A stretch of 64,000 bases of DNA from an uncultured Mycoplasmatota bacterium (GTDB lineage Bacteria > Bacillota_I > Bacilli_A > RF39 > UBA660): the NCBI GenBank assembly GCA_900554315.1, contig USGP01000004.1:4174-68173 (forward strand). Direction: 5' to 3'. The notes under the pieces were generated by a model. It did not search any database. It was given only the letters and a program-made list of their open reading frames with translations, and had not been told where the DNA came from. This document shows positions 55,832-64,000 of the stretch, piece by piece. Each line of letters begins with the position of its first letter. Within the stretch, counting starts at the first letter, position 1. The translations under genes and the position numbers were made by a program.

Positions 55832-56779
55832 TTAGTTATCATAATTGACTTTTACAATATTCGTAAAATAGTTTTGACCAACTCGATTGGCTTCTGGATT
55901 CCAGTCTTCTGTTACTTTTCCTGTTGTGGTATCCATTTTGGTAATATTCATACCGCCTGTACCAGAACAGTGACTGACTGTGATTTCATTGCCATCTACA
56001 CCAATTACCATACCAACATGTCCATCCATAGAGGCTAAATCTCCTACTTCTACTTTATTGGTAGCACTAGTTAAGGGAATATTTTCACCTAGACTTTCTA
56101 GTTCATCTACAACCATTGGTTGGTTGATGTCATAGCCACCATTTTTTAAAGCCCAGGATACATATCCAGAACAATCAAAACTATTAGGTTGAACGGTACC
56201 TGTTTGACTTCCTCCTGGAGCTGTTACTGTTTTACTTTGTCCCCAGGTAGGATCTAGTCCCTCTGTCAGATTGATATGACCTCCACCCCAGAAGTAATTC
56301 ATATGTGGGAAAGAAGTTACTAAAAACATAGCAGCTGCTGCTGATTTTGCTCTTTCACCAGAGGCATTAGATAGAGATTTTTCAAATAAATTTTCATAAT
56401 AATCGTAATCATAACCGGCTAATTTTTGATTAAATGTATTTTCATAAAGTTCTTTTAAAGTTTTATCGTCTAAGATCATACTATCTAAGCCAGTTAAACT
56501 TAAAGTAAGATTTAGTCCACCTTCTGATTTTGCAAATGCTACAACAGCAGCATAAATATCAGAAGAAAATTCTTTGGATTTTTGAATTATATTATTAAGT
56601 TCATATTCTACATCATCTGATACCGAAGAAAAACAATCATCATGATCTTTCCCTAGATTGATAATTTGTTCTCTTTTTTCTTCTAAATCATTGGGAGTAT
56701 TATAAATTTCACTTAGGACCATATCTATATCTTGTTTTGATCTTAAAACTTTCATATAATCTACTTTAGTTTCTGCCAT
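55832..56779 (-). CDS. Leaderless NlpC/P60 (C40) peptidoglycan hydrolase with a ~100-aa helical N-terminal module
   Basis: YFWGGGH, FDCSGYVSW (Cys203), GHVGMVIG (His254), VSHCSG (His270). No signal peptide. AGGTGA Shine-Dalgarno. Confidence 0.85.
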   Translation of the reverse strand: MAETKVDYMKVLRSKQDIDMVLSEIYNTPNDLEEKREQIINLGKDHDDCFSSVSDDVEYELNNIIQKSKEFSSDIYAAVVAFAKSEGGLNLTLSLTGLDSMILDDKTLKELYENTFNQKLAGYDYDYYENLFEKSLSNASGERAKSAAAAMFLVTSFPHMNYFWGGGHINLTEGLDPTWGQSKTVTAPGGSQTGTVQPNSFDCSGYVSWALKNGGYDINQPMVVDELESLGENIPLTSATNKVEVGDLASMDGHVGMVIGVDGNEITVSHCSGTGGMNITKMDTTTGKVTEDWNPEANRVGQNYFTNIVKVNYDN

Positions 56780-56787
56780 TTGATCAC

Positions 56788-57258
56788 CTATTTCATTTTA
56801 CAAAGCGTATCATACTTTTCTTGATATGCCTGTAGACTTTGATTTAAACTTTCTCTTTTGTTTTTTAAATCTTCACTATTAAATATTGCTATTTGAATAT
56901 TTAACCAAAACATCTCACCATTAATTTCATCTATTTTGGCTTTTACTTTTGTTTTTAATTCTTCAATCTCTTCTGTTCTTTTTTCCTCGGCTTTTGCTAT
57001 TATATTGTCTTTCCAACTATTAATAGTATCTTCTAAAGTCTCTGCTTGTGTTATTAGTTCATTGCTTTTATCTTTTAAAACAGTAGCTCCATCTACTGTA
57101 AAACTTTCTTCACCCAATCCACTTTGCTGAGCTTGTTTTATGGCTTGAGTAAAATTTTTTTTGGCTTCTTTTGCGGTAGTAGCATAGGCATTTGTTAATT
57201 TTTTTACTTCATCTAAATCTAAAATAGCTTTAATTGGTGTGTCACAAGTTATTGTCAT
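56788..57258 (-). CDS. 156-aa helical protein, candidate effector helper
   Basis: ATGA overlap with the upstream gene; predicted coiled coil; segment K..II.KAEE.R.EE resembles the 181-aa protein at 59388-59933. Confidence 0.65.
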   Translation of the reverse strand: MTITCDTPIKAILDLDEVKKLTNAYATTAKEAKKNFTQAIKQAQQSGLGEESFTVDGATVLKDKSNELITQAETLEDTINSWKDNIIAKAEEKRTEEIEELKTKVKAKIDEINGEMFWLNIQIAIFNSEDLKNKRESLNQSLQAYQEKYDTLCKMK

Positions 57259-61136: not shown

Positions 61137-63818
61137 CTATTCTAATTCTTCTTTTTGAGGAGCAATAATGTCGTTGTCATCGATTGTTACGTCTGCTCCA
61201 TCATCTAATGATAATTCATTCATTGTTCCTGCTCTATATTTTTCTGGCTCCGGTTCTTGTTGAGAATTATCGTACTCACCAATTGTATCAATATTTTGTG
61301 CGTTATAATTTCCGCCTAGGAAACTATTTTGAGTATCATTTGATGAATCTTCTTCATCTTCATAATATTCATCATCTTTTCCATTTTTCTTCTGAATATA
61401 ATGAATTCCTGCTACTCCTGCAGCTCCTGCGGCTCCTACACCTAATACTGCTGGTATTGCAGATCCTGCACTACTAGTATCTACATTTGGTGTTGTTGTA
61501 TCATTCTTATCTATACTAATTACATCTAGTGTATTGTCTTTTCCAGGTTTTACAGCGGAAATTGTTCCGTTTTCTATTTCAGAATTATCACCAGCTATAT
61601 TGGCAATATTATCTTCTGGATTAAGTTGTGCTTCTGGACCAATTGGTGTATTTTGTGATTGACTATTAAATCCACCAACAACTGATCCACTATAATTTCC
61701 ACCTGTTGAAGTACTTGGTGTTCCTGTATTTGAACCTGCATTATTAATAATATTTCCTGCTACTCCACCTGGGGTTCCTGCATCTGGTGTACTTGTTGAT
61801 GGAGTTTCAGGTACTTGTTCTTCTCCTGTACTTATATCTCCACTCATGTCTCCATTTGTTCCTGTATCAGGAGTTTCAGTGCTTGGCGTTCCTCCTGTTG
61901 AAGGTGTTTCAGTACTTGGAGTGTTTGTTGATGGAGTTTCGACTTCTGGTGCATTTACTGTTGGTGTTGTATTACTTGATGTTCCTCCTGTATTTCCAGA
62001 AGGTGTTGTGCTGCTATCTATTCTAAATTGAGTAGATGCGCTTCCGCCTCCACCGCCATTTCCACCTGAATTTCCATTACCATTGCCACCAGTTGGAGAA
62101 GAACCACCACCTGATGTATTATTTGAAGTATCTTGTGGGGTCGTATCTTGAGGTGTTGCATCTTGTGGAATTGGTTGTCCTGTTGCTGCTTCTAAAGATG
62201 CAGTTTCTGGAGCATCTAATGTTACTTCACTTGCAAATTGAGCTGCTGCATTATCTCCAGCACTTCCTACTAAGCTTCTTCCTGCTGCATTTAATGCCGC
62301 AACGGTTTGTGCTGGGTTATTTTTTACTACGCTTATACCAGCACCAGCTACTTTTTTCGCTGCGTTTAATGGAACTGTAACTGGTGATGTTACTACCTTA
62401 CCGACCGTTTTTATAGGATGCTCTTTTAGAGATGTTTTGGCTGCATTGAATACTTCTCCTGCTTTTTGTGTTACTGCATTTTTGGCATTTCCTGCCGCTG
62501 TTGTAACTGATGTTTTTGCATTTCCTGCTGCGGTACTTATTTTATTTGGCAAATCTTTTACTGTATTTGGTAGATTAGTAACTGCATCCCCTGCTTTTTG
62601 TAGTCCACTACCTGCCGCTTTTAATCCATTACCAGCGCTTGTTGCTAGCGTTGTTCCGGCAGCAGATGCTGTTGCAAGTGGATGGGCTGCAGCATGGGCA
62701 AATGTATCGCCGGCCTTTTGTCCAGCCTTTGTAATTCGATCTGTATAACCTTGATAGTTAAAATTCTTAGCATTATTCAAATTTATTTGTGCTGTTTCAC
62801 GAGCTGTAAGTGCATCATCTAAATTTTGCTTTAGAACAGAATCAGGTACCATATCGTTTGCTGGATTTCCCTTGATTGCATTTGCAGCATCATCGACTTG
62901 TTGTTGAGCGGTTTTAAGTTGTTCTTGTGCTGATTTAACCGCACTGGATTTTTGGGCATGCTCACTCCATTTACCGCCAGCATAAGCCAAGCCTCCTTGG
63001 ACAAGCCCCTGTTGAATTCCTCCATTTGCTACTGCTTCGTTTAAAGTCATACCTTGTTTAAGATTAGATTCAGTACCACTTCCAACTCCTGATAAGAAAG
63101 CGGTTGCAGTATTCGTTCTTGTAGTAGAACTCAAGAATGTTCCTGCGGCTTTTACAAATTTTCCTGCTTTTGTACTATTAGCAGCAACTGCCCCTGCTCC
63201 TGATAGGAATCCACCAACAGCTAAGTATCCTGCCGTGTTACCTACCAGTTCAAGTCCTCCAGCAATGGCGCTGTCCTCTGTAAAGGCACTAGCTTTTGCC
63301 AGGTCACTTTCATAATAGAAATTAAAGGCATCATGAGACCAATCTGCTTCAATAGCATTCTCAATTCCTGTAGTATCAAATCCAAGACCACCTGCGGCAA
63401 ATCCTATAAGTGATAAACCACCGTCACCAATGTCTTCAAGGACACCTAAAGCTCCTTCTCCAACCTTTGAAAGTCCCATCAGAATTGTACTACCTGCCTT
63501 TTCATACCAAGGTGCTTCTTCGTATGCTTTAATGTCCTCTGCTGCAGAAGTGATTGACTTTCCAATTTCACTGATTGCTGTTGATACTGTATCTAGTGTT
63601 GAATCAAATGTATTTTCTGGTAAACTTCCTACGTATTGTTGAAATCCGTTTACATTATTTAATTCTTGAACAGCTGCTCGTATTGCTTCTTTAGCATCAT
63701 CGACATCATTCTTTGCAATTTTATTTATTCTATCTGTTACATCCGCAACTCTATCATAGTCTGCATAAACATCTGCTGCTTTCGGGTCACGTCCGGTAAG
63801 CCATTCTACAAAACCCAT
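61137..63818 (-). CDS. 893-aa leaderless modular protein: helical head, Gly/Ala-rich region, long T/S/P/G/N low-complexity spacer, glycine-zipper TM, acidic tail
   Basis: GGGGAAAG Shine-Dalgarno; TM AIPAVLGVGAAGAAGVAGI (61404-61460); tail ends EELE; segment DTVSTAISEIGK resembles DTMSTAISCFTK of the 591-aa protein. Confidence 0.8.
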   Translation of the reverse strand: MGFVEWLTGRDPKAADVYADYDRVADVTDRINKIAKNDVDDAKEAIRAAVQELNNVNGFQQYVGSLPENTFDSTLDTVSTAISEIGKSITSAAEDIKAYEEAPWYEKAGSTILMGLSKVGEGALGVLEDIGDGGLSLIGFAAGGLGFDTTGIENAIEADWSHDAFNFYYESDLAKASAFTEDSAIAGGLELVGNTAGYLAVGGFLSGAGAVAANSTKAGKFVKAAGTFLSSTTRTNTATAFLSGVGSGTESNLKQGMTLNEAVANGGIQQGLVQGGLAYAGGKWSEHAQKSSAVKSAQEQLKTAQQQVDDAANAIKGNPANDMVPDSVLKQNLDDALTARETAQINLNNAKNFNYQGYTDRITKAGQKAGDTFAHAAAHPLATASAAGTTLATSAGNGLKAAGSGLQKAGDAVTNLPNTVKDLPNKISTAAGNAKTSVTTAAGNAKNAVTQKAGEVFNAAKTSLKEHPIKTVGKVVTSPVTVPLNAAKKVAGAGISVVKNNPAQTVAALNAAGRSLVGSAGDNAAAQFASEVTLDAPETASLEAATGQPIPQDATPQDTTPQDTSNNTSGGGSSPTGGNGNGNSGGNGGGGGSASTQFRIDSSTTPSGNTGGTSSNTTPTVNAPEVETPSTNTPSTETPSTGGTPSTETPDTGTNGDMSGDISTGEEQVPETPSTSTPDAGTPGGVAGNIINNAGSNTGTPSTSTGGNYSGSVVGGFNSQSQNTPIGPEAQLNPEDNIANIAGDNSEIENGTISAVKPGKDNTLDVISIDKNDTTTPNVDTSSAGSAIPAVLGVGAAGAAGVAGIHYIQKKNGKDDEYYEDEEDSSNDTQNSFLGGNYNAQNIDTIGEYDNSQQEPEPEKYRAGTMNELSLDDGADVTIDDNDIIAPQKEELE

Positions 63819-63839
63819 TTCTTCTTTCCCCTTTCTATT

Positions 63840-64000
63840 TTATCCTGATACTGTTACTACACCGCTTGTTGATTGTACTTGACTATGCGCTTGTTCGTTT
63901 AGTTGATTTTGTAAGTTGTCATGAGCAGTTTCTGCCGCCGTATAAACTTCTCCCAATGCTGGTGCGAATGTTCCTTTTATTTTATTTACTGCGCTTTGTG
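63840..64000 (-). CDS. 3' end of an upstream gene in the same operon (partial)
   Basis: Own translation: ...QSAVNKIKGTFAPALGEVYTAAETAHDNLQNQLNEQAHSQVQSTSGVVTVSG, stop at 63840-42, 21 nt before the next ATG. Identity unknown. Confidence 0.5.
   Translation of the reverse strand, partial: QSAVNKIKGTFAPALGEVYTAAETAHDNLQNQLNEQAHSQVQSTSGVVTVSG

Follow-up and report, generated by a model that had tools for sequence, protein, structure and literature searches.

Positions 55832-64000 of the window (the whole 64,000-nucleotide stretch of DNA analyzed here, from an uncultured Mycoplasmatota bacterium) probably belong to a chromosomal island of type VIIb secretion system (T7SSb) substrates and substrate-handling proteins, with 12 genes arranged in two operons and three modules. 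This reading, which upholds the cargo part of the T7SSb cargo/effector island proposed in a preliminary description of the same DNA, is based on two strong members of the small class of DUF4176 proteins, on WXG100-type helpers, and on a gene order like that of LXG/Lap/DUF4176 operons such as that of TelE. Present understanding of T7SSb biology rests almost wholly on staphylococci, streptococci, bacilli, and listeriae, with their LXG toxins and immunity proteins. The island points to a widespread lineage of uncultured gut and rumen Bacilli that appears to use the same helper logic (WXG100-type partners plus a DUF4176 chaperone) for a different cargo, namely large proteins that belong to no curated family, possess a membrane helix and an acidic tail, have no immunity partner, and vary between strains at the "wrong" end.

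Organization of the island

Every real gene between 55832 and 64000 lies on the minus strand, as the preliminary description had stated, but its count of eleven genes did not hold: the window contains nine complete island genes and the last 53 codons of a tenth. To read 6.2 kb past coordinate 64000, we used contig CAAEAM010000046.1 of assembly GCA_900753785.1 (locus L001), of which the window is the exact reverse complement from position 6189. This extension, which the preliminary description had proposed, supplied the remaining island genes (g1 to g3), followed by divergent cotZ genes, lemA, ftsW, and prsW up to the contig end, and no secretion machinery. Window and extension together give a complete island of 12 genes in two transcription units, numbered g1 to g12 along the direction of transcription.

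The gene order reads as three substrate modules. In module 1, the helpers g1 (96 residues; L001:5260-5550) and g2 (91 residues; L001:5585-5860), both beyond 64000, and g3 (133 residues; L001:5948-6349, with its last 53 codons at 63840-64000 of the window, minus strand) precede the large gene g4 (893 residues; 61137-63818, minus strand), which is followed by the DUF4176 gene g5 (125 residues; 60747-61124, minus strand). Module 2 has the same order, with g6 (104 residues; 60303-60617), g7 (90 residues; 60018-60290), and the helical helper g8 (181 residues; 59388-59933) upstream of the large gene g9 (591 residues; 57600-59375) and the DUF4176 gene g10 (108 residues; 57255-57581), all on the minus strand. 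Module 3, on the same strand, consists of the helical helper g11 (156 residues; 56788-57258) and g12 (315 residues; 55832-56779). The start of g6 is most likely ATG 60617, which is supported by a ribosome-binding site, rather than GTG 60626. The grouping into modules, read from the gene order, is backed by several weak similarities: g8 and g11 belong to the same family (28% identity over 113 residues, E = 5e-07), g9 and g12 match weakly at their N-termini, around the motif H-D-x-C (HDNC and HDDC, respectively), the motif FNFYY is common to g9 and g4, and the C-terminal halves of g9 and g4 are 31% identical (E = 3e-08). Profile comparisons of the module 1 helpers with the module 2 helpers were not significant and so give no evidence of paralogy between the two sets. 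In related loci, g1-g3 were kept upstream of the large gene in at least 20 cases, and a DUF4176 gene followed the large gene in nearly all.

The genes are closely packed, and the spacers of 12-21 nt and ATGA overlaps claimed previously were mostly borne out (8, 18, 12, 12, 12, and 21 nt, with an ATGA at 57255-57258, where the g10 stop overlaps the g11 start), except for a spacer of 84 nt between g7 and g8 (59934-60017). This is the only long within-operon spacer, and a plus-strand hairpin that scores as a terminator lies in it at 59995-60012. A Shine-Dalgarno sequence precedes all island genes. The sole large intergenic gap among the island genes of the window is at 60618-60746, and the split into two units that had been placed at 60672-60762 proved sound, as the terminator hairpin and the best promoter match both fall within that gap. 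The intrinsic terminator of unit 1 (60736-60761, minus strand; 11-pair stem and T-run) overlaps the g5 stop codon and folds with -14.4 kcal/mol (z = -4.6), a stability equaled by 0 of 200 shuffled sequences. The sigma-70-type promoter of unit 2 (60701-60672, minus strand; TTGACT-18-TATAAT, 11/12) is the best match of the region, in which promoter-like sites were not enriched (26 found versus 32.6 expected). Thus unit 1 comprises g1-g5, with an 11/12 promoter match upstream of g1 at L001:5174-5203, and unit 2, starting at the promoter at 60701-60672, comprises g6-g12.

DUF4176 proteins and WXG100-type helpers

Both DUF4176 assignments made in the preliminary description were strong (PF13780, cutoff 25 bits): the protein at 57255-57581 (g10) scored 95.5 bits (E = 1.9e-27) and that at 60747-61124 (g5) 83.8 bits (E = 8.6e-24), with each match spanning the full model (1-74). 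A solved DUF4176 structure, PDB 9dcs, matched g10 over residues 4-78 (E = 7.6e-10). The two proteins are 36% identical to each other, and their lengths (125 and 108 residues for g5 and g10) lie inside the small-class range of 70-130 residues. They are the presumed chaperones of g4 and g9, respectively; that each would bind and stabilize its cognate substrate is suggested by adjacency and by co-variation with the large gene between strains (50% identity, versus 100% for g1). In one relative (L031), the g10 orthologue likewise follows a g9-type gene.

Among the helpers, g2 was the most conserved. The AlphaFold2 model of its family (pLDDT 77.5) is a helix-turn-helix with helices at residues 7-38 and 46-90, and its best 37 fold matches in the PDB were all Esx/WXG100 or PE proteins of type VII systems. 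The top matches included Bacillus anthracis EsxB, Geobacillus EsxA, the EsxA proteins of group B Streptococcus and Staphylococcus aureus, other Esx pairs, and Mycobacterium tuberculosis PE (PE25), with TM-scores of 0.70-0.80 and weak E-values (0.06-0.8), as expected of a 91-residue hairpin. The W-x-G signature at the hairpin turn is held by g7 (W-Y-G at residues 43-45), whereas g2 and g6 have W-x-D/E instead (W-S-D/E in g2; W-V-E in g6, whose C-terminus includes Y-T-D-A-E); in g1 the turn reads I-Q-G. When 111 island-type proteins from the island and related loci were scanned, WXG100 was the top family, with six members and a best E-value of 1.8e-06. We regard at least g2, g6, and g7 as being of WXG100 type, g2 by its predicted fold. 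The g11 protein had a weak WXG100_2 match (E = 0.083), the only match to a Lap family was that of g7 to DUF5344 (Lap3), at chance level (E = 0.039), and, the weak g11 match apart, g1-g3, g8, g11, and the N-termini of g4, g9, and g12 had no Pfam or NCBIfam match. No match came from searching PDB sequences with the g1 and g2 family profiles, nor from a single-sequence search with g6.

Large proteins and their C-terminal ends

The preliminary description had found no Sec signal peptide in the island, and indeed no product has an N-terminal hydrophobic segment; transmembrane (TM)-like segments occur only near the C-termini of g4 and g9. In g4, an N-terminal helical hairpin (residues ~1-100) leads into a hydrophobic region rich in Gly (~105-290) and then into an extended helical part; a low-complexity stretch rich in Ser, Thr, Pro, and Gly (~550-785), one TM helix, and an acidic tail complete the protein. 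The protein has no match in Pfam or NCBIfam, and conserved motifs of its family are WSHDAFNFYY and TEDS. The g4 helix is rich in Gly and Ala (residues 787-805; 61404-61460, minus strand; AIPAVLGVGAAGAAGVAGI; hydropathy 1.81), and the tail of 88 residues (61140-61403, minus strand), with Lys and Arg residues after the helix, ends in QKEELE. The g9 protein is built alike, with a helical N-terminus, a Ser/Thr/Pro-rich stretch, a TM helix (residues 508-526; 57798-57854, minus strand), and an acidic tail after it. Both C-terminal helices are rich in small-xxx-small patterns (LGVGAAGAAGVAG in g4 and LGVGAAGMAAAAGIGG in g9).

The combination of helix and tail held in 38 homologues, 28 of g4 and 10 of g9. 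Gly, Ala, and Ser made up a mean of 12 of the 19 helix core residues in the g4 family (n = 28) and 10.5 in the g9 family (n = 10). Tails measured 57-111 residues across both families (mean of 79 in the g4 family) and were strongly acidic in the g4 family (28.6 Asp and Glu versus 5.2 Lys and Arg) and less skewed in the g9 family (~23.5 versus ~11.5). Lys and Arg flanking the helix were commoner on the tail side than on the other side (3.0 versus 2.0 in the g4 family; 4.9 versus 1.0 in the g9 family, with 10 of 10 proteins agreeing), so that, by the positive-inside rule, the tail is predicted to be cytoplasmic and the bulk of the protein outside. The tails end in recognizable motifs, Y-x-A-R...EELADLQ in most g4 homologues (QKEELE in g4 itself) and P-Y-x-A-x-R..RE.D.YYG in g9 homologues.

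The third large protein, g12, combines a helical N-terminal domain with a C-terminal NlpC/P60 cysteine peptidase domain (residues ~188-293; 55901-56218) and has no signal peptide. The NlpC/P60 domain named in the preliminary description is that of the protein at 55832-56779, where it barely reaches the Pfam cutoff (PF00877; 23.8 versus 23 bits; CHAP, 22.7 bits), and the catalytic Cys (FDCSGYV) and His (GHVGMV) align with those of Bacillus subtilis CwlO. The N-terminal domain is very rare (12 relatives among 1.84 billion representatives). Of these relatives, the eight full-length ones that were scanned all matched NlpC/P60 (E <= 0.01), and four scored higher than the Pfam cutoff.

Distribution and strain variation

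The N-terminal domain of g4 is likewise rare, being found in 12 protein clusters among 5.8 billion and at 23 loci among 185,579 species genomes, and all 23 loci were in uncultured gut or rumen metagenome-assembled genomes, mostly labeled Bacilli, Bacillales, Erysipelotrichaceae, or Mollicutes. In most loci with visible flanks, g1-g2-g3-g4-DUF4176 occupied one chromosomal site after a divergent ftsW. In relatives, module 1 was followed by NT5C and valS or by a PTS-EIIB-like gene; the recurrent downstream gene of 843 residues, considered as a machinery component, was rejected on identification as valyl-tRNA synthetase. A g8-type helper and a g9-type protein followed module 1 in nine other loci, the g9 family was present in 10 loci, and a helper of ~168 residues preceded the g9-type gene in nine related loci. 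The g2 family formed 492 clusters in the protein collection, none of them annotated, and g2 was 71-96% identical in 14 of 19 species, compared with ~40% for g4. Several genomes have tandem extra copies of g4 plus DUF4176 (L008, L011, L012, L015, and L023). In the minimal form, g1-g5 directly abut a conserved housekeeping gene.

A sister species, in which g2 is 90% identical to that of the island and the flanks are as in the window, allowed strains to be compared. Between two of them (L035 and L036), the flanks were 98.6% identical and g1 was 100% identical, whereas identity fell to 25% in g3, 36% in g4 overall, and 50% in DUF4176. Within g4, the last ~130 residues (wall-proximal segment, TM helix, and tail) were nearly identical, and the differences lay in the N-terminal two thirds. 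Thus a hypervariable cassette (L035:10365-13794 versus L036:10368-13589), made up of g3, the chaperone, and the N-terminal two thirds of g4, varies as a unit between an invariant WXG-type pair and an invariant anchor. Such co-variation is consistent with direct, allele-specific binding of g3 and DUF4176 to g4. It is also the opposite of the pattern in polymorphic toxins, whose C-terminal end varies along with the immunity gene. In another strain, a DDE transposase (DDE_Tnp_1; L037:13903-15437) lies between DUF4176 and the PTS-EIIB-like gene.

Strains of this sister species with flanks 98.6% identical differed completely upstream of ftsW, with a junction at about position 7119 between L035 and L036. 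In one form (L035, L037, and L039), this region carries prsW, a glucosaminidase-like gene, and ABC genes, which is the arrangement of the genome of the window; in the other (L036, L038, and L040), it carries T7SS-associated cargo, namely DUF4176, a protein of 1042 residues, a kinase-domain protein, and WXG100-like proteins. The kinase-domain protein of L038, considered as EssB, was rejected because it is a soluble protein of 250 residues with a Pkinase domain amid further cargo genes. The large L038 protein (1042 residues, with a different C-terminal part) resembled the Gly-rich region of g4 at hhalign E = 0.0014 and a probability of 18%, which is suggestive at most. Contig L001 ends 370 nt upstream of prsW, near this variable region, which may explain the break in the assembly.

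Secretion machinery in relatives

As the preliminary description had noted, the window contains no EssC-like sequence (tblastn), and no EssC was found within 10 kb in the 23 species loci. The lineage does possess EssC. In a relative whose g2 is 86% identical to that of the island (L031), the strand of the module also encodes a protein of 1546 residues with FHA and FtsK_SpoIIIE domains, whose gene ends 8.5 kb upstream of g1. The 504 residues of it that are visible align with positions 785-1173 of the EssC model TIGR03928 (E = 3e-65). After it come a gene of 84 residues that by eye resembles YukD and small helical proteins, one of which scored 23.8 bits against WXG100 and has W-E-G. In a sister strain of this relative (L029), unrelated genes take the place of EssC; the junction between the two lies directly upstream of prsW, and from there onward they are 98.7% identical. 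The neighborhood is therefore a strain-variable T7SS region.

Further cases came from low-GC loci. A metagenome scan yielded an EssC equivalog in L042 (978 bits versus a cutoff of 778), and in L044 a DUF4176 protein 40% identical to g10 and a related large protein lie directly upstream of an EssC with FHA and FtsK domains. A gene of 84-91 residues, YukD-like by eye, follows EssC in L031, L041, L042, and L043, and in the sister species the left edges of loci L036 and L038 contain the C-terminal end of the YukD-like gene, ~10 kb upstream of g1. EsaA, EssA, EssB, and EsaB gave no Pfam or NCBIfam match in the visible EssC flanks of L031, L042, and L044, of which the upstream parts are partly visible. 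These flanks (L042:349-9228, L044:1062-11506, and L031:1-5135) contain only small helical proteins, the YukD-like gene, DUF4176, and large cargo, and in L042 and L044 unrelated genes appear within one or two genes after EssC (MetRS after the YukD-like gene; MarR and ABC transporters). The T7SSb core of the low-GC lineage may be reduced or divergent. A homologue search with the L031 EssC fragment found only fragments on short contigs, with loci L033 and L034 adding little, and a literature search on T7SS in Erysipelotrichaceae returned nothing useful.

Proposed mechanism

We propose that g4, g9, and g12 are made without a signal peptide and that their N-terminal helical domains would bundle with the helpers encoded upstream (g4 with g1, g2, and g3; g9 with g6, g7, and g8; g12 with g11), each bundle forming a composite signal recognized by the EssC ATPase. 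The DUF4176 proteins g5 and g10 would remain in the cytoplasm and shield the Gly/Ala-rich hydrophobic helices of g4 and g9 until export. After export, the Gly/Ala-rich helix would lie in a membrane with the acidic tail of ~80 residues in the cytoplasm and the Ser/Thr/Pro-rich stretch spanning the wall. The g12 protein would cut peptidoglycan, either for traffic through the wall or in attack on a neighbor.

Several results weigh against the T7SSb assignment. The protein at 60018-60290 (g7), described previously as a clear WXG100 protein, scored 17.3 bits against PF06013 (cutoff 27.3) and so was not placed in WXG100 at the curated cutoff. Its proposed WXG100-like partner (g6) did show that likeness and scored above g7 (21.9 bits) but also stayed under the cutoff. 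Against TIGR03930 (cutoff 44.85), g6 and g7 reached 24.5 and 17.1 bits, respectively; the WXG100 matches of both run the whole model length, and no protein of the island or of the related loci reached the curated WXG100 cutoff. No island protein matched LXG, DUF3130, or DUF3958, and LXG (PF04740) gave nothing against g4, g9, and g12 at E <= 0.1. In the scan of 111 proteins, which included 40 N-termini of large relatives, 39 Pfam families were matched at E <= 0.01, and the 25 with the most matches did not include LXG, DUF3130, DUF3958, DUF5344, or DUF5082. As to an LXG-like fold, an AlphaFold2 model of the g4 N-terminus built from a 13-sequence alignment had a pLDDT of 57, and searching the PDB for similar folds gave noise. 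Neither the window nor L001 contained an EssC, and none lay within 10 kb in the near-identical L003. In L003, the closest strain (flanks 95-98% identical), g4 is split into open reading frames (ORFs) of 349 and 256 residues (L003:10001-12528), with an N-terminus 80% identical to g4 and ~700 nt without a called gene between the split g4 and DUF4176; the cause could be decay into a pseudogene, recombination, or misassembly of the low-complexity region. No T7SSb substrate is known to have a C-terminal TM anchor. Finally, since none of the loci examined had an immunity gene with the module, the word "effector" is doubtful if it is to mean an antibacterial toxin.

Fate of the large proteins and alternative readings

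For the destination of g4 and g9, we slightly favor the membrane of the producer, where they would serve as strain-variable surface proteins, over that of a competitor, where they would act as depolarizing toxins of the TelE/EsxX type. This preference derives from the absence of immunity genes, the invariance of the anchor, the way the charges are distributed, and the stretch predicted to span the wall. Carried further, it yields a proposal that we advance only tentatively, in which g4 and g9 are no toxins and represent a new class of T7SSb substrate, threaded N-terminus first and held in the producer by the C-terminal Gly/Ala helix, with the tail and its conserved end motif inside, a Ser/Thr/Pro stalk across the wall, and an exposed, strain-hypervariable N-terminus that co-varies with its private helper g3 and its DUF4176 protein. 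Such proteins could stand in for the wall-spanning EsaA that these lineages seem to lack, or could be a target of phage or host pressure.

The narrower version of the cargo reading, a classical antibacterial toxin island, is possible but in our view less likely. It would make g4 and g9 glycine-zipper depolarizers of the TelE/EsxX/TspA type delivered to competitors and g12 a wall-degrading toxin. The layout of the large proteins is indeed TelE-like, from the targeting domain at the N-terminus through a middle that depends on DUF4176 to the small-residue zipper at the C-terminus; small DUF4176 proteins elsewhere accompany depolarizing toxins, and the tandem copies of large gene plus DUF4176 in some genomes and the sharp strain differences at the locus would both suit a toxin. 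However, in ~40 loci examined, the module and the genes next to it included no candidate for an immunity gene, above all none encoding a polytopic membrane protein, and the minimal g1-g5 form directly abuts a conserved housekeeping gene. The presumed toxic end (TM helix plus tail) is invariant within the species while the N-terminal two thirds vary, the reverse of polymorphic toxins, and a tail of ~80 residues with ~29 acidic ones would be hard to move across a target membrane. Nor is the g12 family polymorphic, having the same NlpC/P60 end in 8 of 8 full-length relatives scanned.

That the island is an orphan whose apparatus was lost or never present, and which is either a decaying relic or kept for a secretion-independent role, appears improbable. 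EssC is not within reach in this species, the split g4 of L003 could mark decay, and strains of the sister species differ in the block upstream of ftsW, where the genome of the window has the prsW/glucosaminidase-like/ABC arrangement. Against these points, all nine complete genes are intact, with a promoter, a terminator, and strong ribosome-binding sites, and conservation of g1 and g2 is high (23 species and 492 protein clusters), with g2 more conserved than g4; this pattern indicates purifying selection. Moreover, T7SSb loci are often unlinked to their cargo.

Still less probable is an envelope module independent of T7SS, in which g4 and g9 would be tail-anchored by another route, the helpers and DUF4176 proteins would be cytoplasmic holdases, and the NlpC/P60 protein would remodel the wall in division or sporulation. 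The site beside ftsW (ftsW/spoVE-type), prsW, and cotZ, which is fixed in all species, would fit this idea, as would the fact that DUF4176 is the only curated T7SS substrate family matched above its cutoff. Yet T7SS contexts are the only known setting of DUF4176 and WXG100-fold proteins, relatives have EssC close to the module, and a wall hydrolase without a signal peptide needs an export route. In addition, classical tail-anchor insertion leaves the N-terminus inside and allows for short C-terminal ends only, whereas the tail here has ~80 residues, is acidic, and lies on the K/R-rich side.

There is almost no likelihood that the island is left over from a prophage or conjugative element whose lysin would be the NlpC/P60 protein: PHROGs matched only the lysin domain, which resembles phage tail-protein lysin domains (E = 4e-07), and DUF4176, which has a PHROG family of unknown function, while the other island proteins had no PHROGs match, genes for an integrase, capsid, tail, terminase, relaxase, or coupling protein are lacking, and the island is syntenic between housekeeping genes in 23 species.

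With the T7SSb cargo island as the preferred reading, the consequences depend on what becomes of g4 and g9. As self-anchored surface proteins, they would give T7SSb a previously undescribed role in surface display; as toxins, they would call for an explanation of self-protection without linked immunity. Either way, they offer testable clients for the small DUF4176 class, whose function is so far proposed.

Neighboring genes

Downstream (3') of g12 lies a small PTS-EIIB-like gene, followed by housekeeping genes. The gene (55457-55777, minus strand) encodes 106 residues, comprising a TM helix at the N-terminus and a domain like PTS EIIB (31.4 bits, cutoff 27), and directly follows the island; its product is 85-100% conserved among the relatives that carry the gene. 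No separate terminator was found between g12 and this gene, and the two may be co-transcribed. The remainder of the window is housekeeping in nature, with PolC, SMC, PNPase, PBP, and ComEC. At its other end, an ORF of 1634 residues (341-5245, minus strand) had no Pfam match at E <= 0.001, no PDB sequence match, no signal peptide, and no TM segment; it has a coiled-coil N-terminus and two internal repeats of ~330 residues (MLSPDFNPH.MPFFDFQSLY...), followed by short repeats rich in Lys and Glu and by a Gly-rich patch. Three further minus-strand ORFs amid the housekeeping genes, of 529 (32656-34245), 279 (49249-50088), and 320 residues (50183-51145), likewise had no Pfam match at E <= 0.001.

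Comparison with known systems

DUF4176 proteins are toxin-specific T7SSb chaperones that have been tied experimentally to toxin stability and export, and those of the small class (70-130 residues) are proposed to bind the membrane-inserting helices of depolarizing toxins (PMC12478183). The island proteins g5 and g10 are like this class (Ltc/Lcp; PDB 9dcs) in family, size, and adjacency to T7SS-type substrates. Small DUF4176 genes elsewhere usually lie among DUF443 immunity genes (PMC12478183), whereas those of the island directly follow their presumed clients, with no DUF443-like gene.

TelE of Streptococcus gallolyticus has an LXG domain, a middle and a C-terminal region that depend on DUF4176, and a glycine zipper at residues 458-480 of 514, and its operon encodes two Lap helpers and immunity proteins (bioRxiv 10.64898/2026.03.12.711312). 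The island shares with it a large protein without a signal peptide, a helical N-terminus, a C-terminal small-residue zipper helix, small helical partners encoded upstream, and a DUF4176 protein. It differs in having no Pfam LXG match and no immunity genes, in the position of DUF4176 (downstream of the large gene, and upstream in TelE), and in possessing a Ser/Thr/Pro-rich stretch of 150-250 residues and an acidic tail of ~80 residues, compared with ~34 residues after the helix in TelE. Unlike in TelE, the C-terminal end of the large protein is invariant and the N-terminal part variable within a species. Further glycine-zipper toxins of T7SS are EsxX and TspA of S. aureus and LXG-T2 of Streptococcus suis; g4 and g9 have the small-xxx-small helix of this group and lack its linked immunity. 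With the LXG polymorphic toxins in general, the large proteins share the absence of a signal peptide and the small helical partner genes directly upstream, but not the LXG profile, the variable C-terminus, or the immunity gene.

The helpers are like WXG100 proteins (EsxA/EsxB) and Lap factors in being hairpins of ~90-105 residues encoded in pairs or triplets directly upstream of a large substrate. They are unlike WXG100 and the Lap families (DUF3130, DUF3958, DUF5344, and DUF5082) in that all profile scores in the island stay under the cutoffs and g1-g3 have no profile match. The wall-spanning EsaA/YueB/PIP proteins offer an analogy only: they are, like g4, large (~1000 residues) and mostly helical, with a gene right after a WXG100 gene, but show no sequence match to g4, and EsaA has TM helices at both ends where g4 has a single C-terminal helix. 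EsaA has a strain-variable exposed region that phages use.

For g12, the comparison is with EssH of S. aureus, a wall hydrolase that bears a Sec signal peptide. As published (PMC13059805), EssH is a secreted CHAP-domain wall hydrolase dedicated to T7SSb, and like g12 it combines an N-terminal non-catalytic domain with a papain-like Cys/His wall hydrolase domain and is encoded among T7SS genes. Unlike EssH, g12 has no signal peptide, and it possesses a g9-like helical N-terminal domain and its own upstream helper, which suggests that g12 is itself exported by the T7SS.

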